In this document: positions 9,567 to 62,680 of the stretch, in pieces
Numbering within the stretch: the first letter of the stretch is position 1
How the letters are laid out: each line of letters starts with the position of its first letter
Virus record (IMG/VR): IMGVR_UViG_3300031760_000013
Location: 2,458-66,457 of that record
Direction: 5' to 3' (one strand)
Length of the DNA: 64,000 nt
Source of the DNA: a virus
Lineage: Duplodnaviria > Heunggongvirae > Uroviricota > Caudoviricetes
Notes under the pieces: model-generated
The model's input: the letters and a program-made list of their open reading frames with translations, nothing else
Databases searched by the model: none
What the model was told of the DNA's origin: nothing
Made by a program: the position numbers and the translations under genes

Positions 9567-12500
9567 TTAAAACAGCTGTCTGTACGATTTCATCCTGAAA
9601 TATCCGTTTTTGTCTCGCTCGTACGAAGTACAGTATATTATGTCGCCCTTACCTACTTTGGCATGCTCATAATCCCTGTTGTAAATCGTAAACCGGCTTT
9701 CAATACCGCTACCGATTGACTTCGTTGTGATTGAGTAACCGAACTGCTTGCCGTCTTTCTTTCTTCTGACTGGGTAGATGTCTGTAATGTAGAGCTTACG
9801 TCTGTCCTCTTCTCTACCAGACACATAACCTACATACCCCATCACGTCGTAGAAATTCCTGACTTTCAACAGATCACTCAGATCTTCCAGGTGTGCAGCT
9901 TTGATCGCGTCCTCGATCTCTCTCAGGATTTCTCGTGTGTCGAGCTGCGTATAATTCTTAGATTCCTTTCCAGATTTCGTGAAATCGACGGAATGGCGTT
10001 TGACAATTTCCTCGATATGTGTATTCTTGACTTTCTCTTTGGAGATTTGTTTCGCCTCGCCCTTCTTGAACGTGTCGTAGAACATATCCGTTATGCGAAG
10101 AAGCTCCCGCTGGTTCCCAAAATCGGAGAAGAAATCCAGCTTAATTAAGATATCAAGCTGCCGTGTGTTCATGTGCGTCTTCTGATCTATATCAAACAAC
10201 AGATCGCAAAATCTATTGTACTGGTTATTGTGTGCGAGCTCGTAAAGCTCTTCGGCGATCGCGGCGTTCATAAATTTTACAGATGTGAGACCTTTCGCAA
10301 TAATGTTTTTGTCTTCATCGTAGAAGTACTTGTCTCTGGAAAGCCCCCACTTCGGGTTTGTTACGGCAATTCCGACCTTATGTGCGTATTTCGTAATCTC
10401 TGCCGTCTTGTCGGTATTGTCTTGGAATATATTCAGTGCAGCAGTTAAGAACTGTAGCGGGTGATAGTACCTCAAGTACCCACAAATATACCCAATACAT
10501 GAGTAGCTGTCTGAATGGTTCCACGAAAAGGCGTACGCTGATGCGTCAAGGATAACCTGCAAGAACGGTTTAATAACTTTCTCGCATTCTTCCTCTGACA
10601 TCCCATAGTTCTCAATACAGTAAGCTACGAACCGCTTTTCGATTTCTGGCAACAACTGCTCGGTGCCTTTCTTTTTCGCGATACCTCTGCGGACAAGGTC
10701 GCTCTCAGCGGCTGAATAGCCACAGAACTTTACAAGGAACTGCATTATGGTTTCCTGCATAGCGATTCTCCCGGCTTCTGGGGCAAGAAAATCATTCAGC
10801 GCATCAAAACCATTATCGTAAAATTCCCCTCTCGCAACACTGTCTCGGAAACTTGCACATGCCGGACGGATCAAGCCGTTACCGAACGACATCCATTTGA
10901 TCATTGAGAAATTAGGGATTCTTGATCTGGCTTTTTCAAGTGTCTTTTCCGACATGAATTCTCTTAGGTATGCCTGAGCACTATTAGATTCCCATTGGAA
11001 TATCAGCGTTGTGTCTTTTCGAATGCTGTCCCATACGGCCATATCTTCTAGGTCTGTGTTGTCCGGTGTTAACCTCTCAATGCCAAGCATTTTGCACGTA
11101 TCGTTAATCACACCTATATTGTCGAGCCCTAGGATATCAAGCTTCACGTACATCTGATCATCAAGTTCCTTCATGTTTATCATGGAAACCGGATAATCTG
11201 ATGTTGATATACTGCAAAGCCCCATCATTTCATCTATTGGAAGGTCGCTGATCAACACCCCACTAGGATGTGTACCGATTGATACAATCGTACCGTCAAC
11301 TATATCGGCATACCGAAATACTTCCGGCCACTTCTTTCGTGCATTTTCAACGTCCCGATCAACTTCTTTGCTGATTTCGTTTGAAAGATCTAGGTAGTTG
11401 ATTTTCTCATCGTCTTTATATAAAGCTCTGCATACATCACGCACTGCGCCCTTCGTCGCGATTGTGTTGAATGTGATGATTTCTGCAGAGTTGATTGTCG
11501 GAAGCCCCATTTTATCCTTCAACAAGAACTCTTTTATCCTGTCTCGATCCGCACCTGCGTAGTCTGTGTCTATATCGGCGTTTGTTACTCGAGCGGGGTT
11601 CATAAATCTGAAGAAGTTTAGATTAAACTTGAGGCTATCCATCTGCGTTATACCAAGAATGTAGGCAATCATACTTCCAGAGACAGAGCCACGGCTGTAC
11701 CCGCACTGAATACCGTTTTTCTTTTCCCATTCACGTAAGTAAGTCTGCATCAGCATAAAGTCGATTGACTTTGTGGCCTTGTACACTTCAAACTCTTCAT
11801 CGATTACTTTGTCGAGCTCTTCTCGTGTGTGATTTTTAAGCGCATATGGGTGTTTTACCAATGCATCATCAATCTTTTTGCGGAAAGTTTGCTCTGGGTT
11901 GTCATAAATGTGCGGATATTTCGTGCCACAATCCAGTTTGAATTCTTCGACCATATCGGCAAGTACATTCGTGTTGCGAATTGCCTCCATGTACACATTT
12001 TCTTCTAACGAACCCTGTTTTTTATAAGCTTCTACCAACTCATCGTATGTTTTGAACTTTAAATCCCAGAGTTCCTCGCCGTCGAAGTGTATGTTTTTGG
12101 AAAGCTGTAGTATGCTGCGCCCTTTTTCGTGTTCTTCATTCAATACGTGTGTATCTGTACCGGCGATTAATGGGATTGATGTACTCTGACTAAGCGCTGT
12201 AAGCTTCTCATTGTATACGATCTGTTTCTCATCCATGTGATGACCAATTTCAAAGAAACACCTGCCCCTGTTTCGAAGCATAAAATCCAAAAATCGCTCA
12301 CGTACTTCTTCGTCGCCTTTACCGAAAACACCGCCGACACAAGCGGTTGTTATTATAATGTTATCGGTCGTAGCAAACAGTTCATCGAATGAAATTCTCG
12401 GTACATAATAAAAGTGGTTGTCTTTTCTGTTGAAACTTTGTGTTATTAGCTTATTAAGCTCACGGAACCCATCATAATTTCTGGCGATAAGGCAACAGTG

Positions 12501-20207: not shown

Positions 20208-21431
20208 CTATTCTGATGCTTTGAAGTTATATATTGGTCTGATTACTGAATCAATGTGTACAGTGGGGCCAATATTATTTACGATATCATCAACTCGTTT
20301 GTACGCCATAGGAGATTCATCGAGTGTACTAAGATTCACGGATGTCGTGTATATCCCCTCCATAGCTTGTTCGAATTCCTCCAACGGAATAGTCTCTTTA
20401 GCTTTAGAACGGCTCATAATTCGCCCAGCACCATGCGGAGCTGAATAGTTCCAATCTGGGTTACCTTTCCCAGTGCAGATTAAAGACCCATCTCTCATAT
20501 TGATAGGAATGAGGAGCTTCTCACCTCCACGAGCAGAAACCGCGCCCTTTCTCAATATCATGTATTCTGTATCAATATAGTTATGAATGGTCTCAAATTC
20601 TTCAACTGGTATCCAGTTCATATATTTACAAATCGTATCAGCAATTGCCTTTCGATTTAGGTGAGCAAACTGCTGTGCGATTCGCATATCGTGGATATAA
20701 TCATCAAACAGTTTCCCTTCGCACCAAGCCAATTCTTTTGGTGCAGCCGGATAATCTTTCTTAAGCTTTTTCAGAGCATCAGATATTTCTGACTGTTTCC
20801 CTTGTACTTTTAATGTTTCAATTACTTCTTTTCTGGCATCTTCAGTCGGGCCAGAATGCGACTTAGCAGCGAGGCGCTGGTAATGTGTGCAGATATCGAC
20901 CCCTAGATGCCGGCTACCAGTGTGAATAACAAGGTACACGTCCCCAGTATCATCATTTTTATCTAATTCAATAAAGTGATTTCCTCCACCAAGAGATCCC
21001 AGTGAAAGATATGCCCGGACCAGATCCGCATTATTCTTACAAACAAGGTCTTCAAGCTTAATATTTTTTGTTAAAGGATGTTGTTGAGTACGTATGCTCA
21101 TCCCAGATGTGACAATTGGCTCTGTCTCGTTGTAACCATGAAGTGCAGTATCTAATCTTTCGAAATCCAAGACTGATCCTTTTGAAAGCTTTACAGTCAA
21201 CATCCCACAACCAATATCTACGCCAACCAGATTAGGGCATATTTTGTCTGAAATAGTCATGGTAGTTCCGATTGTGCACCCAGCGCCTGCATGTATATCA
21301 GGCATCATGCGTATGGTTTGATTATGCGCATATGGTTGATTTGCCAGTTGGATAACTTGAGAAATAGCTTCAGGTTCAACCACGTCTGTATATATTTTTG
21401 CATTAGCGTACTTCCCTACTACTTCAAACAT
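20208..21431 (-). CDS. rtcB: RtcB-family 3'-phosphate/5'-OH RNA ligase
   Basis: 407 aa. MPDIHAGAGCTIGTTM and GGGNHFIELD match the conserved RtcB metal-binding and His-rich motifs. Confidence 0.8.
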   Translation of the reverse strand: MFEVVGKYANAKIYTDVVEPEAISQVIQLANQPYAHNQTIRMMPDIHAGAGCTIGTTMTISDKICPNLVGVDIGCGMLTVKLSKGSVLDFERLDTALHGYNETEPIVTSGMSIRTQQHPLTKNIKLEDLVCKNNADLVRAYLSLGSLGGGNHFIELDKNDDTGDVYLVIHTGSRHLGVDICTHYQRLAAKSHSGPTEDARKEVIETLKVQGKQSEISDALKKLKKDYPAAPKELAWCEGKLFDDYIHDMRIAQQFAHLNRKAIADTICKYMNWIPVEEFETIHNYIDTEYMILRKGAVSARGGEKLLIPINMRDGSLICTGKGNPDWNYSAPHGAGRIMSRSKAKETIPLEEFEQAMEGIYTTSVNLSTLDESPMAYKRVDDIVNNIGPTVHIDSVIRPIYNFKASE

Positions 21432-23418: not shown

Positions 23419-24372
23419 TTATTCCATGTGTACAATTTTCCAACGTTCGTAATCTCTTTTAAAATCCTCAACAATTTGTCGTTTTTTGGAATCGATCGTG
23501 TTTCGACCAGAGCCAAGCTTATAAACTTTCCCGTCTATATACTCTGCGGCAGCATCTTCAAAACATGGCGCTTTACCCATTGCCTCAGAAATATAAGTCC
23601 TATAAAAAAGCCCGGACAGCCACACTCTGTAGTAACTTAACGATTGCAGTTCGCCCATTTCCTTGAACGCCATGCGTTTTCTCTTTGAAAACTCAACGCG
23701 AAAAGCCCTGATTGTTGGTATAGCTTTAACACCACTTAGTAGAAACGTCCTATCAAAACGCTGTACTACTATACGTTTTGAATAGTTTGGGTGTGCATAC
23801 ACAAAAGAATCAAGTGTCGATGCAGCGGAAAAGTCCGCAAAAGCCTCCTTATATATTCTGTATGATTTGTTGTCAAAACAAACAGCCATGTTTTTCAAGT
23901 CAACATCTGTGCGTCTGACTAATACCGTTTTTTCTTCTTTTACACCAGAGAATGCCAGCCAATAGTAACATCTGTATATACAATCCACAGTTTGCTCATC
24001 GGATGGCTTAAAGTAAAAATCTAAATATTTCTTCAGCTCTTCTGGGGTTGAGACAGTTAAGCGACGCATCTCGTCTGACATCTCATTGCTGTACATAATA
24101 CTTTCTGCGCATGTTTTTACACCAATATTCTTTTCGCACCAGCGGAGATAATCTTTCAGTGTGCTTAACACGCCCATTGTTGATCTAGACCTCAATGTGT
24201 AAGCACTATCCACCACCGCGCTCAGCTCCTGTTTGCTCATTTCGTAAAGGTCTCGTCCGGCTGCATCTTCATATTTCCCAAACGACTCAAACAAACGATT
24301 GAGATTCCTTGCGGTCATTTTGTTGTTTGTTTTCTGTTCGATATACCTACTCTTGAGTTGAATATTGTACAT
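23419..24372 (-). CDS. hypothetical protein, paralog of 50187..51137 (N-terminal region resembles a recombinase core-binding/SAM-like DNA-binding domain)
   Basis: 317 aa. Same length and parallel motifs as the 316-aa protein at 50187..51137 (LKDYLRWCEKNIG versus VNSYLKWCDRNRV). Strong AGGAGG RBS. Confidence 0.45.
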   Translation of the reverse strand: MYNIQLKSRYIEQKTNNKMTARNLNRLFESFGKYEDAAGRDLYEMSKQELSAVVDSAYTLRSRSTMGVLSTLKDYLRWCEKNIGVKTCAESIMYSNEMSDEMRRLTVSTPEELKKYLDFYFKPSDEQTVDCIYRCYYWLAFSGVKEEKTVLVRRTDVDLKNMAVCFDNKSYRIYKEAFADFSAASTLDSFVYAHPNYSKRIVVQRFDRTFLLSGVKAIPTIRAFRVEFSKRKRMAFKEMGELQSLSYYRVWLSGLFYRTYISEAMGKAPCFEDAAAEYIDGKVYKLGSGRNTIDSKKRQIVEDFKRDYERWKIVHME

Positions 24373-37966: not shown

Positions 37967-38308
37967 TTATGTAAATTCCTCATCATCTTCAGCTTCTCTA
38001 CTTGGTATGTCCTGGTCACACTCAAAACATGTGAGCTGAATATCACTCAATTTATGGTATTCAATTTCCCCAAATGGTTCGCCCGTGCACTCATCAATCA
38101 GATCAAAACCAAGTAACCATTCTCCATAGCCAAGGTCGATCGCCTCTCTCAGGTATGCGAAGCTGTAATAACTATCCTCAAAAACCGATTCATCAATAGC
38201 TTTAAGCTCCATTTCGTATGGTGTGTATAATTTTCGATACACAAGAAACCGAAAAATTCTGTCGTCCGATTCATCCAGCATAAAAGTTTCCAGATCAGTT
38301 ACTATCAT
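37967..38308 (-). CDS. hypothetical acidic protein
   Basis: 113 aa; preceded by about 300 nt of structured leader carrying the conserved hairpin motif. Confidence 0.4.
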   Translation of the reverse strand: MIVTDLETFMLDESDDRIFRFLVYRKLYTPYEMELKAIDESVFEDSYYSFAYLREAIDLGYGEWLLGFDLIDECTGEPFGEIEYHKLSDIQLTCFECDQDIPSREAEDDEEFT

Positions 38309-38798
38309 TTATATTTCCTTTCATTCCATGTAGTCTATATATGGTATTTGTATGAGCCCGACGACGTCGATCGTTTAGCAGGACATCCTCCGACCGGCTT
38401 GGATGAACTGTTTGGTCAGAGCTTAAGACTCAAGGAAGGCTGTTTTAATTGTGTGATTTGCGTGTGTGGTGGCTAGTGTACTGATAAAATGCCTAACTTT
38501 GAATTTTAATTTGTCTGCCGGTGAGGCTTCCTCGAAACGTTCCAGCGGTATCCGGACGCCCGCGGCGCTCCCGGGACGGCGTCGTGTCCCGCTCAAATCG
38601 TTACTTCCGCTTACAGCAAGAAGCTGTTTCATAAGAAACAAATTGCACTACATGTTTATATTTTTTAGGGGGAAGTTGGCTCATGCACTACCGTCGTAGC
38701 ATTGGAACCAATACCATTACAGCAATATGAGGGAGGGCACATTGCTTTTTCTGGCGACAGCATCTCTGTCATTAAGCATGATTTGATCCTCACTTACG

Positions 38799-38874
38799 TG
38801 GTACCGCTGGATGGAGTTGAACCATCGTCTTTGGCTTATAAGGCCACTGCTTCTAACCATTGAGCTACAGCGGC
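38799..38874 (-). tRNA. tRNA (anticodon loop CUUAUAA, so anticodon UAU, Ile-type), CCA encoded
   Basis: Minus-strand sequence GCCGCUGUAGCUCAAUGGUUAGAAGCAGUGGCCUUAUAAGCCAAAGACGAUGGUUCAACUCCAUCCAGCGGUACCA folds as a cloverleaf: a 7-bp acceptor stem with one G-U, a GG D-loop, T-arm GAUGG/UUCAACU/CCAUC and 3' CCA. The D-stem has one irregularity. Confidence 0.55.
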
Positions 38875-39300
38875 ATATCCTTGCGATCTATACGCCTAAA
38901 AGTCTGAGTTGGCGTATACTATTCTGGCATTTTCGGAGCAAGATAATTTAGATTCACCTGAAAACGTAGAAAATTGAAGATCAAAATCCCTAAGGATTTT
39001 GTCGAAATTTTCGAGGCTTTCAGGTGCAGATGAATTATCTTGTGGAGAAAATGTAGCTACCATTTCAACACTCTCGCTTACAGCAAAGAGCGGCTGTAAT
39101 TATGTATTACCACTTACAACCAATCTGCATCGCAAGGTTACTTGACGTATGTCAAGTATTCCCTTTATTGTAACCGATTAATCGGTCGAGTTCTCTGGCG
39201 ATATCTTCCCGCCTTCTGGACATCATGTCTTTTGGGCTCCTTTTCCTATGCATAAGTCGCCATAAACGAAACGCGTCTTTTAATTCCGCGAATTTCTCAA

Positions 39301-39609
39301 TTACCCACAAAGTAATTCACCCCACAAACTGTTAAATTCATCATCACTGATATCTGGTGGCGGTGAGCACGCTAACTCACTGAACATTTCGTCTGTCCAT
39401 CTGTAATTCCACATATCTACGCTTTCCCCGGAAGATACAAGATATTGGCCATTTAAATAATCAGAGATTTGAACTACTTTTCCTCTAAGCTTGCACATAT
39501 CATCAGTCGCACTATTACTAGCGCTATGGTCTTCCATGCTGTAATGCATACCTTCTATCAAGTCTTCTCTTACAATGACTCTATCGCCTATTTGGTATTT
39601 CATATTCAC
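39301..39609 (-). CDS. small protein, GDRV-barrel/WTDEM family
   Basis: 102 aa; GDRVIVREDL, RWTDEMF and C-terminal DDEFNSLWGEL. Confidence 0.45.
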   Translation of the reverse strand: MNMKYQIGDRVIVREDLIEGMHYSMEDHSASNSATDDMCKLRGKVVQISDYLNGQYLVSSGESVDMWNYRWTDEMFSELACSPPPDISDDEFNSLWGELLCG

Positions 39610-39610
39610 C

Positions 39611-39799
39611 TCATATCCATGCGTCTACTAACGCACCGAGCTGTTTGTTCAGCTCCGCATAATTCCTTCCGTATATTACGGCTTCATCAGAACCCACCTC
39701 ACAAAGTTTATTGTCGAGCCGTACGTTGCGATTGGAAAGAAAATCCTCGAAGACATCAATGATCTGCCCGACAAATTCTTTTCTATCAACTGTGCTCAA
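39611..39799 (-). CDS. hypothetical protein
   Basis: 62 aa ORF. Confidence 0.3.
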   Translation of the reverse strand: MSTVDRKEFVGQIIDVFEDFLSNRNVRLDNKLCEVGSDEAVIYGRNYAELNKQLGALVDAWI

Positions 39800-39812: not shown

Positions 39813-40313
39813 TCATTCCGTCAGAAATTCAAAGAATTCCTCATCTGAGAACACATCTTTAATCTCGGAATCGATAAGCCGGATACTGTCCCATGGTACA
39901 TTCCAACCATGTTTAACATCGCATTCTCCACCGCAAGAATGCCCGTTGATGTTTCTATCCCATCTTACGCCAATCCATTCCCCGCGGTCTTCGCTTTCAA
40001 GATAAACAATTGTTCCGCGGTCTCCGGCCCGTAAGTGTCCACCATCTAATTTAATTAAGCCAGAATACTCTACTCTGTCCCCAACTCTGAAGTCGTCGCA
40101 TATTCCCCTAAGTGAGTCTGGATGGAGGTACCAGCCGTGCTCGTCGTTACACCGGCCATCACATGTATGCCCTCGATGTATCGCCATGTCGAATTCGACT
40201 CCGATTGAGCCGCCACCAAAGGATACACTTACGACTGTTCCTCGATATCCCATTTGGATATCGCCAATTTTTACATCGCTGATGTATTCTACACGATCCC
40301 CAAGATCAAACAT
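39813..40313 (-). CDS. tandem-duplicated GDRV/HGW-domain protein with C-terminal SDEEFFEFL tail
   Basis: 166 aa. Two internal repeats, each GDRVEY...G.RGT.V...GV.....GH.C.G.C...HGW..P.DS. Confidence 0.45.
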   Translation of the reverse strand: MFDLGDRVEYISDVKIGDIQMGYRGTVVSVSFGGGSIGVEFDMAIHRGHTCDGRCNDEHGWYLHPDSLRGICDDFRVGDRVEYSGLIKLDGGHLRAGDRGTIVYLESEDRGEWIGVRWDRNINGHSCGGECDVKHGWNVPWDSIRLIDSEIKDVFSDEEFFEFLTE

Positions 40314-40321
40314 AATTTACC

Positions 40322-40639
40322 TCACAAACCTAAGAACAAGGTAAACTCATCGTCAGAGCATGCATCAAATTCTTCGGATTCCTGCAGTTTTTCCACGTTA
40401 TATTTGTTCGTATTCCAACCATGGCCTACTTCGCATGCCCCATCATTGGAATGCCCGTTCGGCAGTGCCTCATCCCATGCAATGTAAACCCATGTAATAT
40501 CTTCTGGGCAATCTTGCAAAACCGTCCCGGTCATACCGTACTTTAAATGACCGTTATCTTCGGCACGTTCGCTTACAAATATTATCCGGTCGCCCTTACG
40601 TAAAACTTGGCGTTCTCTATCATATTTACACATCTTCAT
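40322..40639 (-). CDS. GDRV/HGW-domain protein with C-terminal DDEFTLFLGL tail
   Basis: 105 aa; KGDRIIFV...GHSNDGACEVGHGWN; single copy of the repeat found in 39813..40313. Confidence 0.45.
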   Translation of the reverse strand: MKMCKYDRERQVLRKGDRIIFVSERAEDNGHLKYGMTGTVLQDCPEDITWVYIAWDEALPNGHSNDGACEVGHGWNTNKYNVEKLQESEEFDACSDDEFTLFLGL

Positions 40640-40974: not shown

Positions 40975-42129
40975 CTATCCAGCAAGATCCTCTTTAATCA
41001 GTTTCTTGATGCTCCCGCAACCAAGCTTCTCACCAAGATAACCAACCAGCTCGTCAATTTTTCTGCCTTCAACCATCTTGTAATAATTATAGAGCCCGTT
41101 CATAACTTGGATATCCTCCAAATCCCACGGATTCCCGTTCTGCCTATCTTTCACATAGTTTGTGAGCATCGCCTGAAATCTGCGCTTAGTTTTATGCCCA
41201 ATAGTTATTTCGTTCTGCCCGTTAAGACAGCATCCAAGCAGAAAGTTATGTCCAGAAGAAGAACCGTACCTTGTCTTTGCGGTATTGAGCTGGAACGGCG
41301 CATTAAATGTTGCAAGTGAGCTGATAATTTCCTGCTCGATTTTTCTGAAGTCGAAATCATACCGAGACGAAATGATAAAGTCATCGGCATATCTCGTATA
41401 CACGAAGCGCTGCTTATCGAAATCCCTGAGTTCCTTCGATAGCTTATAGTCGATTGGAATCATCATGATGTTGGTTATCAGCGGAGAGATCGGAGTGCCC
41501 TGCGGAAGCCCGCCATTCAGAATTGCTAACTCAAGAGCAGATTCCAAAGCACTTCTTCCTCTTTCGGTCTTAACCACTTCAGAAAACGGGTATACCATAG
41601 AGAACATCTGCATGATAAATTCCAGAGTTGTGCTACCAAAGAAGTCATGCAGGTCATATTTACAAAACCACTTGCTCTCATTTGACTGATGACGCTTCAC
41701 CGCATCAAGCGTAGACCGTTTCTTGATATACGCAAAAGCCGATGTGTGATACAGCGCCTTACAATCATTCTCAAAAATACCTTTCAGTGTTCTAAGTGCG
41801 CTCATCAAGTCGTCTTCCGGCGCATTAATCTCACGAAGGCCGCCAGATTTTTTAGGAATATAAAACTTATAGTATGATTCCTGCCTTGGCTTAGATTTAA
41901 TTCTAGCCACTACATCTGATGTGTTAAAAGCTTCGAGCTTGAGGATGATGCGTCCAATGCTTATACCAAGTTTTCTTTCTACCCTATCAGACACATACTC
42001 CATTTCATAAGTACGTGTGTTTGTAAGATTCTCATTGATTACGCCTGGCGTAGTCGATGTCTGGAAGAGAAACTCCTCCAAAGTCATCTGGTGATACGTC
42101 GGCGGCATCTTGACAACGACATATACCAT
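40975..42129 (-). CDS. reverse transcriptase (retron-type, no maturase/endonuclease domains)
   Basis: 384 aa. RT motifs YIPKKSGGLREI (motifs 1-2), LPQGTPISPLITNIMM (motif 4, QGxxxSP) and YTRYADDFII (motif 5, YADD). GGGAGG RBS. Confidence 0.85.
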   Translation of the reverse strand: MVYVVVKMPPTYHQMTLEEFLFQTSTTPGVINENLTNTRTYEMEYVSDRVERKLGISIGRIILKLEAFNTSDVVARIKSKPRQESYYKFYIPKKSGGLREINAPEDDLMSALRTLKGIFENDCKALYHTSAFAYIKKRSTLDAVKRHQSNESKWFCKYDLHDFFGSTTLEFIMQMFSMVYPFSEVVKTERGRSALESALELAILNGGLPQGTPISPLITNIMMIPIDYKLSKELRDFDKQRFVYTRYADDFIISSRYDFDFRKIEQEIISSLATFNAPFQLNTAKTRYGSSSGHNFLLGCCLNGQNEITIGHKTKRRFQAMLTNYVKDRQNGNPWDLEDIQVMNGLYNYYKMVEGRKIDELVGYLGEKLGCGSIKKLIKEDLAG

Positions 42130-42157
42130 CTTATGTTCCTCCCTATTAAACTGTTAT

Positions 42158-42480
42158 ATAACTGTAATCTACGTGTGTGTGCCTGCAGGAACCGGGACCG
42201 TCTTCCTGGATCTGGAGTTGTAGTCTGCTGGCGAGCTCGCCATTACTGAGTAGCTTGTCATCGAGAAAGGAGCCTTGTTTTCCAAGATTTCGTATTTCTG
42301 ATGGCTAAGATTTTGCTACTAGGTCTTGATAAGACTCGATGACTGTGACAGCACGAGCAGCTGCTGGGTCATCGCTGCGGCGGAAGGCGTGCCCAGCCAT
42401 CGTTCACGCCTCTGCTCAAATCGTTACTTCCGCTTACAGCAAGAAGCACCATATTACTATGGTCATTGCATTACAGTTAT
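42158..42480 (-). ncRNA. candidate retron msr/msd-like non-coding RNA upstream of the RT
   Basis: A 323-nt non-coding region bounded by 11-bp inverted repeats ataactgtaat (42158-42168) and attacagttat (42470-42480). The downstream repeat lies 28 nt from the RT start, the a1/a2 geometry expected of a retron. The interior has a perfect palindrome tggcgagctcgcca and GC-rich pseudoknot-like stems. Confidence 0.35.
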
Positions 42481-42497
42481 GAAATTAGATTTCTAAA

Positions 42498-42752
42498 TTA
42501 TTCGTTTTCCAAAATCTCAAGCAGATGTTTCCCGTGATCGGTGATTTTCATATGCTTGAGCATAGATTCGCAGTGCTCGCTCTTGAAGAATTCTTTGATT
42601 TCCTTTTTGGAATAACCCCATTCATCGCGAGTTATCCGCGAATCCTTTCCCCTATTGCAAAGGTCGCGGTAATCGTCAGCTGCCTTCTGCAAAATTGCCA
42701 TGGCAAGCTGAGCTGCACCGCGACCCCGCAACACCTCTAACGATTCTGGCAT
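42498..42752 (-). CDS. hypothetical protein
   Basis: 84 aa; between the E1-like gene and the RT leader. Confidence 0.35.
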   Translation of the reverse strand: MPESLEVLRGRGAAQLAMAILQKAADDYRDLCNRGKDSRITRDEWGYSKKEIKEFFKSEHCESMLKHMKITDHGKHLLEILENE

Positions 42753-43423
42753 CAGAATACGTCCAGAATCCCACTAAAGCCATCGATCTGGCCGAACTTC
42801 CAAATACCTTCACCCTTAACAAACTTTATGTAATTGTTCACACACATCGCACAGATGAGGCGGACAGTTGTCACAACTCCGAGTGTAATTCCGCACGCGC
42901 TCACTGGAGTCTCGTTTTTTGCCTCTTCGTGTGAAAACTGCATAGAGTTCAGAAGGTTCTGGCGTGACTGGTAATCACTCCAGTCTGCCCCATACATCTG
43001 CGCTCCCGTTAGAGCCGTTCTCACGTCGAACACCGCTTTTAAGAAAGGGTGATCCATGTGCTGCTCAACAAATTTCCTGCGCAGTTCTATATTGTCCGGG
43101 CAAAGGAACACATACCCCGATAGCATTTTCCCCTGCCACCCTTCCGGTTTGATCTTGATCGAATCTTTTGCTTCCGGATTAATTTCCAGAATAAGATCCC
43201 GCAGCGCCTCGACCTTAAGCCTTCCGATATCCTGCTGTCTGAACATCTGGTTCACGATGTTGTGCTTTTCGACCTTGTCGAAATCATAAAGCGTCATCTT
43301 TGTAATGCCGCACCGAGCAAGATTTTCCGCGATTGTCGAGCCGACTGACCCGCAGCCGATTATATGAATCATCGCGTCATCTTTTTCCGGCTGGAAGAAT
43401 TCATAGCTTTTACTGAGATCCAT
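42752..43423 (-). CDS. ThiF/MoeB-family E1-like adenylyltransferase (minimal adenylation domain)
   Basis: 223 aa. HIIGCGSVGSTIAENLARCGITKMTLYDFDKVEKHNIVNQMF reproduces the E1 Rossmann GxGxxG plus the D.D.VE..N(L)xRQ nucleotide-binding signature. Confidence 0.6.
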   Translation of the reverse strand: MDLSKSYEFFQPEKDDAMIHIIGCGSVGSTIAENLARCGITKMTLYDFDKVEKHNIVNQMFRQQDIGRLKVEALRDLILEINPEAKDSIKIKPEGWQGKMLSGYVFLCPDNIELRRKFVEQHMDHPFLKAVFDVRTALTGAQMYGADWSDYQSRQNLLNSMQFSHEEAKNETPVSACGITLGVVTTVRLICAMCVNNYIKFVKGEGIWKFGQIDGFSGILDVF

Positions 43424-43424
43424 A

Positions 43425-43916
43425 TTACCCTCCGATCATTTCATTTGCTTCACGCAAACCATTACCAAGAGCTTCGAGCTCTTCCTCCGTAAACCTCTGC
43501 ACACAATCCCTGCTTTCGGAAAGCATATCCATCACCGTGCATTCTTCTTCCTCGACCTCGAAAGGATCGTACGGTTCAAATGGCTCTTCCTCTTCGTCAT
43601 CTTCCCAGGCGTCGTTTTCATCCGCCCAATCACGAACTTCGCCTTTCCAGTAATCAAAATCCGCCGGACGCCATTCGCCATAATATTCGTCATACTCATA
43701 GTAATCATAACCACTATTGTCACGATACCTATCAAGTATATTGAACAAATCTTGCCACGTGTTATCTCTGGCAAGATCGACAAGACTTTCATCGATAATT
43801 TCGTCACGCGAATCTGCAGAGATTACATCCTCAAGAAGATAGCAGCCGACATCGTCGCAGAACTGATTCAGGTCATAGAAATCATTAACGTCATCGATAA
43901 ATGTAGAACGATTCAT
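43425..43916 (-). CDS. highly acidic protein ending in Gly-Gly (candidate ubiquitin-like/sulfur-carrier-like partner of the E1-like enzyme)
   Basis: 163 aa with very Asp/Glu/Tyr-rich repeats (DYYEYDEYYGEW, EDDEEEEPFEPYDPFEVEEEE). C-terminus ...NEMIGG followed by the stop codon. AGGAGG RBS. Beta-grasp fold not verifiable by eye. Confidence 0.4.
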   Translation of the reverse strand: MNRSTFIDDVNDFYDLNQFCDDVGCYLLEDVISADSRDEIIDESLVDLARDNTWQDLFNILDRYRDNSGYDYYEYDEYYGEWRPADFDYWKGEVRDWADENDAWEDDEEEEPFEPYDPFEVEEEECTVMDMLSESRDCVQRFTEEELEALGNGLREANEMIGG

Positions 43917-43928
43917 ATTTTCCTCCTA

Positions 43929-44933
43929 TCAATAATAGAACCCGTCACTATACCCGAACGGGCCATACGGGTCGTCCATTTCATCGGCATAGATACCGGA
44001 TGCCCTGTATGGCGATCTGTCGGATTTTTTCTTCTCTTTTTTCTCGGAACGTTTGAATTTCTTCCCGAGATGTTTTTTCTTTGACTCGGGGTACTCCTTC
44101 TTTTCCTGCTTGTCCACTTGTGCCACCTGTACCTGCTTAGGTTGTTCAACCTTTGCGATCGGGGCCACAGGCGCAGGTTTTACCTGTTCTGGTTTCTGGG
44201 TATAATTATTTCTATATACGGACTGCAATTGTTCTTGATTTAAGTTGTACGCAGACCCGTTGTAATTCCCGTACTGCTGGTATGCCGGTTTATTTTCCGT
44301 GATCATTCCCTTTGCTTCACGCAAGAACTTTTCAACTCCGCATTCATCTTCGATCACGTTAACCGTCACGTCGGAAGTATCAAACATGACATTCTTTTTC
44401 ATGTCATAGATCTTATACATACATTCCCCGCGCTTGTTATAGATCATGAATATGTAAAACATCGTATCATCGAGTTGGCCGAGAAGCTTTTCATACAAAT
44501 CATTATCAGTTACCGATGGCGTAACTCCCATATTTACATGGGAATGCCCCTGCATTCTGATATTGTTGAATACCTCATCTTCCTGCTTCATCAACCATTC
44601 CTGGTACTTAATCTGATCTGTGTTGACATTCGCCGCGGAAACTACCTGCGGGTATACCAGAATGTCTGTGATATAATACTCGTCTTTCGTCTCATCTTCG
44701 CCACGATAAGCAAGCCCATGCCAACCAACTTCTTTATCACATTCCCTGATCAATGACGTCATTTTCAGCCATGCAATTTCGGTGAAATAAACCGTACATG
44801 GACGTTTTGTCGCCATCAATGCTCGATGAAAATCGATCTTGCCATCCATCAGCTTTGCAGATTTCAGGATACTTTCAAATTCCTGTCTCCACTGGCTGAT
44901 ATTATCCTCTGTTATCTTAATTGCTTTCGCCAT
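43929..44933 (-). CDS. JAMM/MPN+ family metalloprotease (JAB deubiquitinase-like) with Lys-rich C-terminal tail
   Basis: 334 aa. Exact JAMM motif HSHVNMGVTPSVTD (HxHx7Sx2D) with an upstream Glu (EVGWHG). C-terminal third is low-complexity and Lys/Pro-rich. Confidence 0.65.
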   Translation of the reverse strand: MAKAIKITEDNISQWRQEFESILKSAKLMDGKIDFHRALMATKRPCTVYFTEIAWLKMTSLIRECDKEVGWHGLAYRGEDETKDEYYITDILVYPQVVSAANVNTDQIKYQEWLMKQEDEVFNNIRMQGHSHVNMGVTPSVTDNDLYEKLLGQLDDTMFYIFMIYNKRGECMYKIYDMKKNVMFDTSDVTVNVIEDECGVEKFLREAKGMITENKPAYQQYGNYNGSAYNLNQEQLQSVYRNNYTQKPEQVKPAPVAPIAKVEQPKQVQVAQVDKQEKKEYPESKKKHLGKKFKRSEKKEKKKSDRSPYRASGIYADEMDDPYGPFGYSDGFYY

Positions 44934-46404
44934 TTGCAGTTGCCTCCCCTTCCTGCAGTTTCAGATATTCGATTGCTTCCTTCGGTTTTACTACGCTGCC
45001 ATCCGGCAGTTCAAAGCATTTATTGTTCGTGCTGTAATCGCTTATGCCATAAATCCTCTTGAAGAATTCACGCATAACGGTACCGTCCCCAAAGTTCAAA
45101 CTCTTGCATGATGCGATGCACTGTTCAATCGCGCCGATATAATCCCTATTTCTAAGGAACATATTAATCTGACGTTCGTAATTCCCGAGACAACGATATG
45201 CGTCAATGTGAGTATTCGGCATATAATCTCGGAATTCCGAGCCATACTCATACCCACCCATCGCACTGACATTACCTTCAAGACGGAAATGATATGCTGC
45301 ACAGAATCTGATCTTTATTGTCTGATCAATAAACACTGCACGCATCAGCTTTTCCATGTCTTCTTCCGGAATAATGTTGTTACACCCACGATCGTTCGGG
45401 CGATACATGAGACTGCGCTTATTCCCGATCATGCTCTCAGCAGCATCTTCGTCGAAATACTGGAGATAATCTTTCACAACGAATTCCATCACTGTATCAT
45501 CTACCTTCATTAGTGACAGTTTCCTATTGTTGATAAAGTACTGCATGATCTCAGATTCTTCATCGCCGCTTGCAAGCTTTGTTTCAATCCCCAGAAGAAC
45601 GGTTTCCTGGTCTCTTCTCTTACGCAGATATTCCCCAATTTCTTCGTTCAATCTTTCGATCGTCCTATCGATCTCACCGATATTATTAGCGACTTCCGTC
45701 CTGCGGAGACGCTCATATTTCAACTCAAACCCTCCAAGCATTCCCTTAATGCCTGCGGTTCTGAAATCGTAATGAGATGCGATCTGATCAACACACTCGA
45801 GATATCTGTCCGGCGTTTTCTCTCTGAGAGAATGAATCAGCGACATTTCCTCATCGGATACACCATTTTTCGGATCAAAATACCAAGGTAAGAACGCAAA
45901 TACACCACACTGCAGATAATGCATTCTGCGTGTGTCCATATTATCCGTGAAGATGTAAACGCTGCGTCGCTCAACATTCACATAACACAGAACTTTGAAA
46001 ACTTTCCGGTAAAAATCCGTGACCTTTGTTACGCGATGCCATCCCGCACACATGCTCTCGAGGTTGTTTTCGATCGCGTGGAATACCTTTTCCGACGCTT
46101 CGTCTGAACCAGTCGAGATGTTCTTAATAAACAGGATACCATCACCCATGCGATTAACATGAACACACTGATCGTTCGCAATAGTTTCCTCTGTCTTTGA
46201 CCGAACATCGCTTGGACGCATTGACTGTGAATAATACGAAAAAGTGAGGTTGTCATCCTCTCCCATTCTTGGCGCAACTAATGCACGCAATGTAGATATG
46301 AACGTGCTATCACCATTCACCATATCGCCCCAGATTTTCCCTCTGAAATACTCTTCCGCGAACGGTGTGGTCAGAGACGTTCCACGAATTAAGTCTCTAA
46401 ACAC
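44917..46404 (-). CDS. hypothetical protein (495 aa)
   Basis: Long ORF with no motif I can name. Confidence 0.45.
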   Translation of the reverse strand: MFRDLIRGTSLTTPFAEEYFRGKIWGDMVNGDSTFISTLRALVAPRMGEDDNLTFSYYSQSMRPSDVRSKTEETIANDQCVHVNRMGDGILFIKNISTGSDEASEKVFHAIENNLESMCAGWHRVTKVTDFYRKVFKVLCYVNVERRSVYIFTDNMDTRRMHYLQCGVFAFLPWYFDPKNGVSDEEMSLIHSLREKTPDRYLECVDQIASHYDFRTAGIKGMLGGFELKYERLRRTEVANNIGEIDRTIERLNEEIGEYLRKRRDQETVLLGIETKLASGDEESEIMQYFINNRKLSLMKVDDTVMEFVVKDYLQYFDEDAAESMIGNKRSLMYRPNDRGCNNIIPEEDMEKLMRAVFIDQTIKIRFCAAYHFRLEGNVSAMGGYEYGSEFRDYMPNTHIDAYRCLGNYERQINMFLRNRDYIGAIEQCIASCKSLNFGDGTVMREFFKRIYGISDYSTNNKCFELPDGSVVKPKEAIEYLKLQEGEATANGESN

Positions 46405-49942: not shown

Positions 49943-50200
49943 ATGATATTGTTATTTAAAGACCAGACTTATTTAGCAATCACATCAACCAAGTGGATTA
50001 ATAAAGAAGAGGCTGACATAATCAGCCTCAACGATTTACAGAAATCCAAAGAATTCCACGGGAAATCAGTGGAGTCTGCCGGTATTTGTTTTTACGATTC
50101 CAGTTATTATCTCGTTGTGGAATTTACAAAAACCCTCGAGATTCATAAATGGTGCGGTAATTGCATCGTGAAAACCATTTGGAGAATTATTCCAGATTGA
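49943..50200 (+). CDS. hypothetical protein
   Basis: 85 aa plus-strand ORF with AAGGAG RBS; isolated plus-strand gene in a minus-strand block. Confidence 0.35.
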   Translation: MILLFKDQTYLAITSTKWINKEEADIISLNDLQKSKEFHGKSVESAGICFYDSSYYLVVEFTKTLEIHKWCGNCIVKTIWRIIPD

Positions 50201-51137
50201 AATAGCGTTTATAGGCGCGGTAAGACCACAAGGCTTTACCCGCCGTTTTTGTTCCTTTAAAAACCTCAGTAACTTTACTGGCGTTTTCTTTTGAAAATAC
50301 ATCGAATCCCGCCTGTTCTAATAAGAACAGAGCGTGGAGCCTACCAGATTCCCACACGTTTTTAAAGACAAGCCTATTAGGATTCCCAAGCTCCTGATAG
50401 GCTTCAGCGATTTTGTTTAATGCTGAATTCAATTGCGTTGGTGTATAAGATTCCCCGAACCTGTCGGATTTTGGTGTTGCGAACTTCTTCAAAAACTGTT
50501 TGCAATTCGGGTCTTTTACCACGTTAAAAACCGCCGTCCGATTTTCTCTTTGAGCGATTTTGCAATCTGCATACTCCGTAAGGATTTTAGAAATTTCCGG
50601 AGAATACCATGATGCTATAACATTCCCGTCAACATCATATATTTTCTTGTTAGCAAGATCAACTTGAGAATCCAGCATATTAAATATACTGTTTTTCCCA
50701 ACACCAATCCACGCAAGCGCAAATATCGGTGGCTCTACATACCCGTTATCAATTTCCCGAACCTTTTTAATTTCTGTACACAGTGACGCCGGGTCTTTAA
50801 TGTAGATTTCCCCTGCTTTCGAGAATACATCTGAATTCGGATCAATTGCCGCGAGAATCCAATCTGTCACGTGATCAAAAACCCTATTTCTATCACACCA
50901 TTTCAGATATGAATTCACTATTGAACGGACCGTGTATATGGTTCCCAGAGATTGCATATCTAATTTCCCAGCAACAGATTCCGCTTCCGCTTTATCCATT
51001 TCCGCAATATCCTTACCAAAATCCCGTTCAAGCTCTTCTGTAATTCCAAAGATTTTGAACGCAGTATTCCTGTTGGATTTGGTTGCAATCATTTCCATGA
51101 TAAAGCTATCTTTAATTTCGGCATTATACATTTCCAA
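50187..51137 (-). CDS. hypothetical protein, paralog of 23419..24372
   Basis: 316 aa; shared length and motifs with 23419..24372. Confidence 0.45.
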   Translation of the reverse strand: MEMYNAEIKDSFIMEMIATKSNRNTAFKIFGITEELERDFGKDIAEMDKAEAESVAGKLDMQSLGTIYTVRSIVNSYLKWCDRNRVFDHVTDWILAAIDPNSDVFSKAGEIYIKDPASLCTEIKKVREIDNGYVEPPIFALAWIGVGKNSIFNMLDSQVDLANKKIYDVDGNVIASWYSPEISKILTEYADCKIAQRENRTAVFNVVKDPNCKQFLKKFATPKSDRFGESYTPTQLNSALNKIAEAYQELGNPNRLVFKNVWESGRLHALFLLEQAGFDVFSKENASKVTEVFKGTKTAGKALWSYRAYKRYFNLE

Positions 51138-61642: not shown

Positions 61643-62680
61643 TTGTGCATAATGGGACGAAAGACAAAAATGACTAGAATCACTAGTCCAGAAAAGATGG
61701 CTTTGATAAACAAAAACAATATCAGGCTCAAAGATGAATTTTTGATGTATCTGAAATCCATCCAACGAAGCCCTGGCACGATCACCGGATACGATAGTGA
61801 CCTGACAATTCTGTTTACATACATACTGGATAATTATGACAACAAAGATTTCCAGCAGCTAAGCAAACGAGACCTGATCGGATTTCAAAACTGGATGGTA
61901 ACGAATGGAAATTCAAGCTCACGAATCAGGAGAGTAAAAGCTGCTATCAGCTCCTTGTCGAATTACTGCGAGAACATATTGGCTGACGACGACCCTGATT
62001 TCGACGGGTTCAGATCTATCGTGAGAAAGATTGAGAACCCTCCTCTTCAGCCGGTCAGAGAAAAGACTGTGCTCGAAGATGATGAGCTTGGGCTTTTGCT
62101 TGACAAGCTTATAGAAAAGAAGCAATACAAGAAAGCTTGTTGCCTTGCACTTGCTATGTATAGCGGTAGACGGAAAGCGGAGCTTCCACGATTTCGCGTT
62201 GAGGATTTTAGCGATGAGCGGCTTGTATGCGATGGTGCACTATATAAAAGCTCACCGATTCAAACCAAAGGGAGGGCAGGTGGAAAGTACCTCGCTTGCT
62301 ATACTCTGGCAAAGAAGTTTAGCCCCTATCTTGATTTATGGATGAAAGACCGAGAAGAGCAAGGGATAGAGAGTGAATGGCTCTTCCCTTCTGCAACTGA
62401 TACTAGCAAACCGATGGGTATATCAACGCTGAATAGTTGGGCAAAGACTTTCTCTGCTATCCTGCAGAATGATTTCTATTGGCATGCCATGAGGCACTAC
62501 TACACAACGTGCCTGACCAGAGCAGGTATCCCAGACGGTGTGATTCAAAGTATTGTTGGTTGGGATTCTGCAGACATGGTCAAGGTCTATAAAGATATTG
62601 ATGCTGATGAAGAGATAGGAATGTATTTTAAAGATGGTGATATCTCCGTTCCGGATAGGAAAGGATTCGGAGATATATAG
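61643..62680 (+). CDS. tyrosine recombinase (phage integrase family)
   Basis: 345 aa. N-terminal core-binding-type domain; C-terminal WHAMRHYYTT (HxxR) and IVGWDSADMVKVY (catalytic Tyr). Confidence 0.7.
   Translation: MCIMGRKTKMTRITSPEKMALINKNNIRLKDEFLMYLKSIQRSPGTITGYDSDLTILFTYILDNYDNKDFQQLSKRDLIGFQNWMVTNGNSSSRIRRVKAAISSLSNYCENILADDDPDFDGFRSIVRKIENPPLQPVREKTVLEDDELGLLLDKLIEKKQYKKACCLALAMYSGRRKAELPRFRVEDFSDERLVCDGALYKSSPIQTKGRAGGKYLACYTLAKKFSPYLDLWMKDREEQGIESEWLFPSATDTSKPMGISTLNSWAKTFSAILQNDFYWHAMRHYYTTCLTRAGIPDGVIQSIVGWDSADMVKVYKDIDADEEIGMYFKDGDISVPDRKGFGDI

Follow-up and report, generated by a model that had tools for sequence, protein, structure and literature searches.

Retrons are understood as bacterial anti-phage systems built of one reverse transcriptase (RT), one non-coding RNA (ncRNA) and one effector. 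In the 64,000-nucleotide (nt) stretch of viral DNA analysed here (positions 2,458 to 66,457 of IMG/VR record IMGVR_UViG_3300031760_000013, Caudoviricetes; hereafter the window), retron RNA architecture is found on the phage side, in several copies per RT and with unrelated, fast-evolving bodies that would serve as templates. Two of these copies, which we call elements A and B, lie in a gap between genes, and comparison with related phages suggests that they are probably orphan paralogues of the msr-msd-type ncRNA next to the RT gene, within a co-transcribed minus-strand cluster of four RNA genes that forms part of a multi-template phage retron.

In the msr-msd transcripts of retrons the two ends hybridise, the msr part has one to three hairpins and the msd part forms a long variable stem; a conserved branching G and "two opposing G residues" are further features (PMC7736814). 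The elements described here resemble those of canonical retrons of types I-A and II-A1 (Ec78, Ec83, St85; Mestre et al. 2020, PMC7736814) in their hybridising a1 and a2 ends, in the G that follows a2 and faces a second G, in their short msr hairpins (two here, SL1 and SL2) and variable long msd stem, and in the position of one copy immediately upstream of the RT gene. Unlike canonical retrons, they come several to an RT and with unrelated bodies, A and B are separated from the RT by genes, the elements are longer (247-358 nt), the retron RT signatures NAXXH and VTG are degenerate, there is no known effector, and they occur in large uncultured phages instead of in defence islands or small prophage cargo.

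A different comparison is offered by UG27, an RT of the class 2 UG/Abi group that gut phages often carry (Mestre et al. 2022, PMC9226505), which has variable ncRNA arrays (units of about 135-167 nt) whose central hairpin is copied to a short DNA hairpin, and which needs two accessory proteins (bioRxiv 10.64898/2026.09.22.753630). As in UG27, a phage RT is accompanied here by several structure-conserved, sequence-diverse ncRNAs, some of them in neighbouring intergenic regions, and the probable hosts are gut Bacillota/Bacteroidota. UG27 has a YSDD active site, AUCN7UANAG and UUYA motifs, a pseudoknot and two domain-less accessory proteins, whereas the present locus has YADD, an a2-G...G-a1 closure and, as neighbours, ThiF/E1-like and JAMM-motif proteins together with a 495-amino-acid (aa) protein without a detectable domain. 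The Staphylococcus jumbo phage MarsHill encodes a retron-like RT (gp206) whose upstream non-coding region has been proposed to hold an ncRNA (bioRxiv 10.1101/2020.12.14.422802). The likeness to MarsHill extends to a virulent-type phage, a retron-like RT, a long upstream non-coding region and no recognisable effector; the two RTs are only about 24% identical, and neither an ncRNA structure nor multiple copies are described there. Our literature search found no description of a retron with several or orphan ncRNAs, nor one of this phage family.

Relatives were collected through the RT, which yielded six IMG/VR contigs and 318 metagenomic matches; 80 loci from the latter were retained, on human-gut and rumen contigs of up to 156 kb. 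An additional 22 contigs of metagenome-assembled genomes (MAGs) carry the RT and are mostly binned as Clostridia, pointing weakly to a host among the Clostridia/Oscillospirales. Covariation was assessed in a MAFFT alignment of 36 distinct 5′ modules, from which a covariance model, R1, was also built. By R1 the window contains exactly four copies of the 5′ module, all on the minus strand and within 8 kb of the RT; these copies, with the RT and the two RNAs that share the gap with A and B, are as follows.

40975-42129, minus strand: retron-type RT, 384 aa, YADD active site (Pfam RVT_1, E = 1.7e-18; PADLOC RT_II-A, E = 6.5e-46).
42480 to 42158, minus strand: RT-proximal ncRNA, 323 nt, ending 28 nt before the RT start codon (R1 76.3 bits).
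39137 to 38879, minus strand: element B, putative orphan retron-type ncRNA, 259 nt (R1 20.5 bits, E = 0.056).
39129-39137, 39128, 39092-39121, 39070-39091 and 39056-39069, minus strand: a2, invariant G, SL1, SL2 and divergent box of element B.
38928-39053, minus strand: msd-like long stem-loop of element B, 126 nt, with 48-nt arms of 77% complementarity (-46 kcal/mol; folding z-score, z = -9.1).
38889-38918, 38888 and 38879-38887, minus strand: short hairpin, opposing G and a1 of element B.
38799-38874, minus strand: tRNA-Ile, anticodon UAU (ARAGORN, tat; Rfam RF00005, 64.2 bits, E = 1e-11, full model 1-71).
38672-38798, minus strand: spacer RNA, 127 nt, with three hairpins, one of them with a CCCUCCCU loop (folding z = -3.1).
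38654 to 38327, minus strand: element A, putative orphan retron-type ncRNA, 328 nt (R1 75.9 bits, E = 1.5e-13).
38647-38654, 38646, 38625-38640, 38603-38624 and about 38591-38604, minus strand: a2, invariant G, SL1, SL2 and box (GUAACGAUUUGA) of element A.
38336-38590, 38335 and 38327-38334, minus strand: variable body with GC-rich stems, opposing G and a1 of element A.
34690 to 34523, minus strand: element D, a fourth copy with the same 5′ module and a short body (R1 44.2 bits, E = 6e-7).

Read on the minus strand, the elements share a layout that consists of an a2 of 8-11 nt, a G, a variable SL1, a conserved SL2, the box (consensus GUAACRAYUUGA), a structured body of 90-250 nt, a second G and a1. 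The RT-proximal ncRNA, directly upstream of the RT, is the founding copy of the family in this genome; it begins with the a2 sequence ATAACTGTAAT followed by G and ends with TAG followed by the a1 sequence ATTACAGTTAT, and its minimum-energy fold is closed by the a2/a1 helix. The minimum-energy folds of A and B are closed in the same way by perfect helices, of 8 bp in A and of 9 bp in B (z = -7.35). The gap between the genes holds four co-oriented minus-strand RNA genes, namely element B, tRNA-Ile(UAU), the spacer RNA and element A, in that order. Element D, whose closing helix is weak (7 bp, two of them G-U), lies directly upstream of a gene starting at about 34456.

The initial annotation of the window had recognised a conserved hairpin in two copies. 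It is 22 nt long, with the copies at 38603-38624 and 39070-39091, and covariation identifies it as a selected RNA structure. Further copies are present at about 42431 and 34632, so that there are four matches, all on the minus strand, as against 0.39 expected. What had been missed is that the two hairpins in the gap are parts of larger units, two complete elements (about 260 and 330 nt) bounded by terminal inverted repeats, in which they are the putative modules for recognition by a protein.

Across the 36 relatives, 88.6% of the SL1 and SL2 cells are paired, compared with about 40% when the partners are slid, and 114 double-sided changes are seen compared with 12-39 in the slid controls; none of 500 shuffles comes up to these figures. 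At two SL2 positions the pair is most often G-U, and the fold therefore exists only in RNA of the RT sense. The strand bias of the family is complete, with 216 of 216 R1 matches in 1.1 Mb of related loci and 39 of 39 in the MAG loci lying on the strand of the RT (255 matches in total). The arrangement of one RT with several RNAs on its strand extends to more than 300 related gut and rumen phage contigs (318 RT matches; R1 census on 1.1 Mb). As a rule one element precedes the RT start by 250-350 nt and one to three follow closely after the gene, while some lie at a greater distance. A more distant relative, with an RT that is 38% identical, has a weak R1 match just upstream of its RT gene.

The G after a2 is invariant in all 36 aligned sequences, and when the closing helix is anchored on it the median run is 10 bp as against 5.5 bp for shifted anchors (79 distinct elements), helix lengths being biased upward since the a1 partners were picked by maximal complementarity. 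This bias is addressed by the shifted anchors and by the opposing G, which was no selection criterion and yet stands directly before a1 in each of the 59 distinct elements whose closing helix is at least 8 bp long (lengths 247-358 nt).

In most relatives two elements make up a genuine tandem array, head-to-tail right after the RT stop codon and with 10-20 nt from a1 to the next a2 (as in L067, 11165-11750, and L027, 11591-12130), and the layout in the window is dispersed instead. In one relative, L004 (IMGVR_UViG_3300031994_000039, 10126-11733), whose RT is 53% identical, R1 detects no ncRNA and the region upstream of the RT lacks a non-coding gap; L004 has a five-tRNA array that includes a UCA-anticodon tRNA (called SeC), which could be a stop-codon suppressor.

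Elements A and B are present at orthologous positions in two related loci, L002 and L007, even though the RT there is only 72% identical. In L002 the a2/a1 pair of element B has changed from CCTTGCGAT/ATCGCAAGG to CCTTGCAAT/ATTGCAAGG and the closing helix of element A from CATGTAGT/ACTACATG to CATGTAAT/ATTACATG, in both cases by compensatory changes that keep the pairing. The apex of SL2 differs from genome to genome and is uniform within each: every one of the four window copies has GCUGUAAGC, and the three copies of L007 all have GCGUUUCGC. Across the family, SL2 identity is 0.82 within a locus compared with 0.70 between loci, a value as high as this being seen in none of 500 permutations, and such concordance is what recognition by one cognate protein would produce.

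The closely related strain L011 provides a comparison on a shorter scale. The 5′ modules are 97.5-100% identical between the two strains, the tRNA-Ile is 100% identical, most flanking genes are 94-99% identical, and the variable bodies are only 78-91% identical. In element A the 5′ module is 98.6% and the body 78.4% identical; this body (38336-38590, aligned with about 15830-16090 of L011, 78% identity) lies among flanking genes of 97-99% identity and is the fastest-evolving segment of the 21 kb compared, a rate of change for which recombination, relaxed constraint and diversifying selection may each be considered. The long hairpin of element B keeps its pairing between the window and L011 through five double, compensatory substitutions, and in the L002 orthologue a different hairpin stands in its place. 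A conserved recognition module joined to a fast-evolving, structurally constrained body is the msr/msd pattern. We argue that A and B are functional because they keep orthologous positions with compensatory a2/a1 changes, share a concordant SL2 apex, are unevenly conserved along their length and have compensatory pairs in their bodies, five in the long hairpin of B and three in the body of A. A search of the variable bodies for complementarity to the rest of the window or to the related loci returned orthologous positions only.

The best PADLOC models for the RT are those of the retron groups RT_II-A, III-A and I-A, and its best matches in the PDB are the retron RTs Ec83, Ec78, St85-family, Ec67 and Kva2, aligned over nearly the full length. 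Among NCBIfam models retron_St85_RT scores best, with 166.3 bits, compared with 92 bits for the group II RT model, 43 bits for Drt2 and 34 bits for Drt3a. Relative to the Ec83 RT, the NAXXH signature (NAKIH) reads AVKRH, with the H kept, and the VTG signature reads (N/L)LG, with the G kept. Judged by these profile and protein matches, the RT is closer overall to retron RTs than to other prokaryotic RT groups. The type II-A retron of Pseudomonas phage PfAC01a has the same geometry at its ends, with GTTCTTTAC followed by G and, opposite, G followed by GTAAAGAAC. R1 finds no match in that retron and Rfam msr misses the elements, and for these reasons we treat the elements as a distinct ncRNA family with retron architecture. 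No nucleotide similarity of the window to isolated phages was found, and the best RT by protein comparison among isolated or deposited phages, 38% identical, is on an unannotated faecal contig.

The reading of A and B as additional retron templates has to be weighed against other ways in which such RNAs could come to accompany an RT. They might template the RT by non-retron priming, either protein-primed or from a 3′-OH, so that free short DNA hairpins with no 2′-5′ branch are made, as in UG27. There is a precedent in phage RTs whose variable arrays of structure-conserved, sequence-diverse ncRNAs template cDNA hairpins (bioRxiv 10.64898/2026.09.22.753630), and the degenerate NAXXH and VTG signatures and the several ncRNAs per RT fit it. 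We nonetheless regard this as rather unlikely, since the RT is far nearer to retron RTs (166 bits) than to the class 2 UG RTs (Drt2 43, Drt3a 34), its PDB matches to retron RTs are full length and the Drt2 match covers only 55 residues, and the a2-G...G-a1 geometry is invariant, as 2′-OH priming needs. A UG27-like mode in particular agrees poorly with the elements, for the AUCN7UANAG motif is found in none of the 62 examined (shuffle mean 1.4) and the units are 247-358 nt long, not about 150 nt. Identity with UG27 was rejected on these two grounds, and the RT is unlikely to be a member of that group, from which it is set apart by YADD, its retron affinity and the features of the units, not by a UG27 profile. 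A diversity-generating retroelement was also considered and rejected: there are no template and variable (TR/VR) repeats, no direct repeat in the window is longer than the 50-nt module, and the RT is nearest to retron RTs.

Two further explanations dispense with a role for the RT. Almost all elements stop 10-30 nt short of the next feature, be it a ribosome-binding site with its start codon, a further element or a tRNA, and cDNA synthesis from the elements is a predicted step only, so that they could be viewed as RT-independent cis-acting RNAs (5′ leaders, processing sites or stabilisers) that share only ancestry with the RT-proximal ncRNA. The parts that change and those that do not make this distinctly unlikely. 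A leader would be expected to carry its function in the body, yet conservation is lowest there and reaches 97.5-100% in the RT-type module; within a genome the SL2 apices of all copies change together, and the opposing G is present in 59 of 59 elements; and the genes downstream of the elements are unrelated to one another. That A and B are decaying duplicates (pseudogenes) or selfish DNA similar to miniature inverted-repeat transposable elements (MITEs), with no present function, we consider highly improbable. Terminal inverted repeats of 8-12 bp around a body of 250-350 bp do resemble MITEs, and the weak closing helix of element D and the fast divergence of the bodies could be taken as signs of decay, but orthologous positions are kept at 72% RT identity with compensatory a2/a1 changes, the hairpin of element B is maintained by five compensatory pairs, and all 255 matches lie on one strand, the structure being made strand-specific by its G-U pairs. 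The inverted repeats, moreover, differ between copies and still pair, unlike ends recognised by a transposase; MITEs were rejected on this variation and on the strand bias, and no target-site duplications were seen at the ends of the elements.

Several observations nevertheless weigh against a multi-template retron. A retron is by definition a contiguous cassette, and A and B stand apart from the RT: B starts 1.8 kb and A 2.3 kb past the RT stop codon, and six open reading frames (ORFs) separate the RT from B. Of the paralogues, only the one at 42158-42480 adjoins the RT. A canonical retron effector is absent. The best NCBIfam score of the RT is below the model's cutoff of 235, and of the retron signatures NAXXH and VTG the enzyme retains no more than the most conserved residue in each. 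Rfam msr (RF00170) gives no match at E up to 10 in 38000-39700 or 42100-42800; the PfAC01a retron, as a positive control, scores 28 bits (E = 0.0076) and is itself sub-threshold. The body of element A is branched and has no single long hairpin, and its predicted long-range closing stem is backed by only three compensatory pairs. The R1 score of element B is low, because its SL1 is long and its box divergent, and the upward bias in closing-helix lengths has to be counted here as well. Finally, the whole finding rests on sequence comparison, which has established the structures, their covariation, their strand, their association with a retron-type RT and the multi-copy layout; transcription and cDNA are predictions.

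If A and B are retron templates, a mechanism can be proposed. In each element the a2 and a1 ends pair, such that the invariant G 3′ of a2 faces the second G 5′ of a1. A single RT would recognise the shared SL1-SL2 module of every copy, consistent with the manner in which this module co-varies between genomes in all copies, and would, by analogy with canonical retrons, prime on the 2′-OH of the G after a2. It would then copy each variable body, giving a different msDNA, a single-stranded DNA hairpin, for each element. The distance from the a1 of element B to the tRNA start is 4 nt in the window and 5 nt in L002, and because of this proximity RNase P cleavage at the tRNA 5′ end could trim, and so define, the 3′ end of B. 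What the resulting DNAs might do is a matter of conjecture, our guess being that they act as decoys or sensors in the conflict between phage and host defence; candidate partners are the conserved E1-like and JAMM-protease genes that precede the RT.

The remainder of the gap differs in some respects from how it was first described, and two further features are needed to define it.

39155-39310, minus strand: gene for a 52-aa protein (BLASTP against L002:4997-5146, 60% identity, 82% positives, E = 2e-22).
39140-39157, minus strand: 7-bp hairpin across the stop codon of the 52-aa gene, separated by 2 nt from the a2 of element B downstream.

The initial annotation placed an ORF-poor region of about 1 kb at 38309-39300. 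This holds for 38309-39151, and beyond it lies the conserved 52-aa gene, within the coordinates first proposed and outside the RNA cluster. There is an ORF at the same place in L002, and because of this conservation we take 38309-39151 as the true non-coding gap; all credible genes around it are on the minus strand. The dismissal of Arg/Gly-rich ORFs over the GC-rich stems as shadows proved sound, as they have no coding conservation and the region is the most diverged segment between strains; the stems themselves are part of the body of element A. The tRNA is borne out both by ARAGORN and by the Rfam tRNA model, whose score of 64.2 bits compares with a gathering score of 29, and its orthologue is at the same position in L002 and L007. 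The Rfam search that had been suggested returned this match and no other family above threshold in the window, and a permissive scan of 38000-39700 gave only noise beyond the tRNA.

The inverted repeat cacctgaaa/tttcaggtg is present, at 38955-38963 and 39018-39026, with its apex hairpin (aaaatcc/aggatttt) at 38983-39000. Both belong to the long hairpin of element B (38928-39053), of which they form the inner part, and the description of this region as pseudoknot-like does not survive, the whole being a plain nested hairpin. The hairpin acttgac-gtat-gtcaagt, now placed at 39140-39157 (z = -4.6), has an L002 counterpart with one compensatory pair; the window contains 11 hairpins of this size compared with 4.6 in shuffles, and this one may be a boundary mark or a processing site. 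A 14-nt palindrome was likewise found, at 39173-39186, where it is part of the 52-aa gene (encoding DRLIGY) and is not conserved in L002. Six palindromes of this length occur in the window as against 4.5 in shuffles, and with this chance-level count and a position inside a conserved gene it was rejected as a signal. The proposal of a small-RNA or regulatory hub was right in that the region is a cluster of RNA genes and not junk, and too vague otherwise, no evidence of a regulatory role having been found in it. We also rejected a promoter reading of the repeated motif, which has no consistent -35/-10 spacing of sigma-70 or Bacteroidetes type (four found in a scan compared with 5.7 expected), and a terminator reading, for the terminator-like matches lie on the non-coding plus strand.

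The spacer RNA has no Rfam match over its length (38672-38798) and is found in this lineage only. It is about 91% identical to its counterpart in L002 and 97% identical to that in L011, shows two compensatory pairs, and is better conserved relative to L002 than the neighbouring proteins (about 60-64% identity). Its CCCUCCCU loop resembles an anti-Shine-Dalgarno sequence.

Upstream of the RT-proximal ncRNA is a block of minus-strand genes (42752-46404) for proteins of 495, 334 and 163 aa and a ThiF/E1-like protein, and an ORF of about 84 aa lies between the block and the ncRNA (about 42500-42751). The block is kept in 27 of 28 full-length loci and in the relative with 38% RT identity. A JAMM/MPN+ motif (HSHx7SxxD) is seen in the alignment of the 334-aa protein, which has a weak PADLOC JAB match; neither it nor the 495-aa protein has a match in PDB or Pfam. 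One possibility is that the block forms a ubiquitin-like conjugation module with a link to the retron; another is that the association reflects synteny only. Between the RT and the RNA cluster are two small paralogous proteins (39813-40313 and 40322-40639, minus strand), of which the first is above the cutoff for the Xrn1 SH3-like domain PF18129 and the second just below it; a 48-nt repeat at 39900 and 40412 marks their duplication.

Elsewhere in the window there is an RtcB-type RNA ligase (20208-21431, minus strand; phrog_1075, E = 2e-131); its presence in a genome that also has the tRNA and the ncRNA cluster may hint that cleaved tRNA is repaired. The model phrog_5830 ("integrase") is matched by two paralogous proteins (23419-24372 and 50187-51137, minus strand), and phrog_1 by a further, integrase-like protein (61643-62680, plus strand). 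Because of these integrase-type matches the phage may be temperate or plasmid-like and not strictly lytic.

These observations bear on the kinds of retron that exist in phages. We put forward tentatively, at somewhat less than an even chance, that a large family of uncultured gut and rumen phages carries a new kind of retron in which one RT and a shared module of about 70 nt serve several dispersed ncRNA genes and provide the infecting phage with a repertoire of fast-evolving msDNAs, acting as counter-defence decoys or takeover factors, possibly together with the E1-like/JAMM block; this would be a counterpart, in the retron clade, of the UG27 arrays, reached independently. The compact natural recognition module (a2-G, SL1, SL2 and box; about 70 nt) would then allow several retron DNAs per enzyme and could be of interest for retron-based editing. 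If the RT really copies all of these RNAs, the rule of one RT and one template for retrons would be broken, and, taken together with UG27, libraries of small DNA hairpins would look like a recurrent phage strategy.

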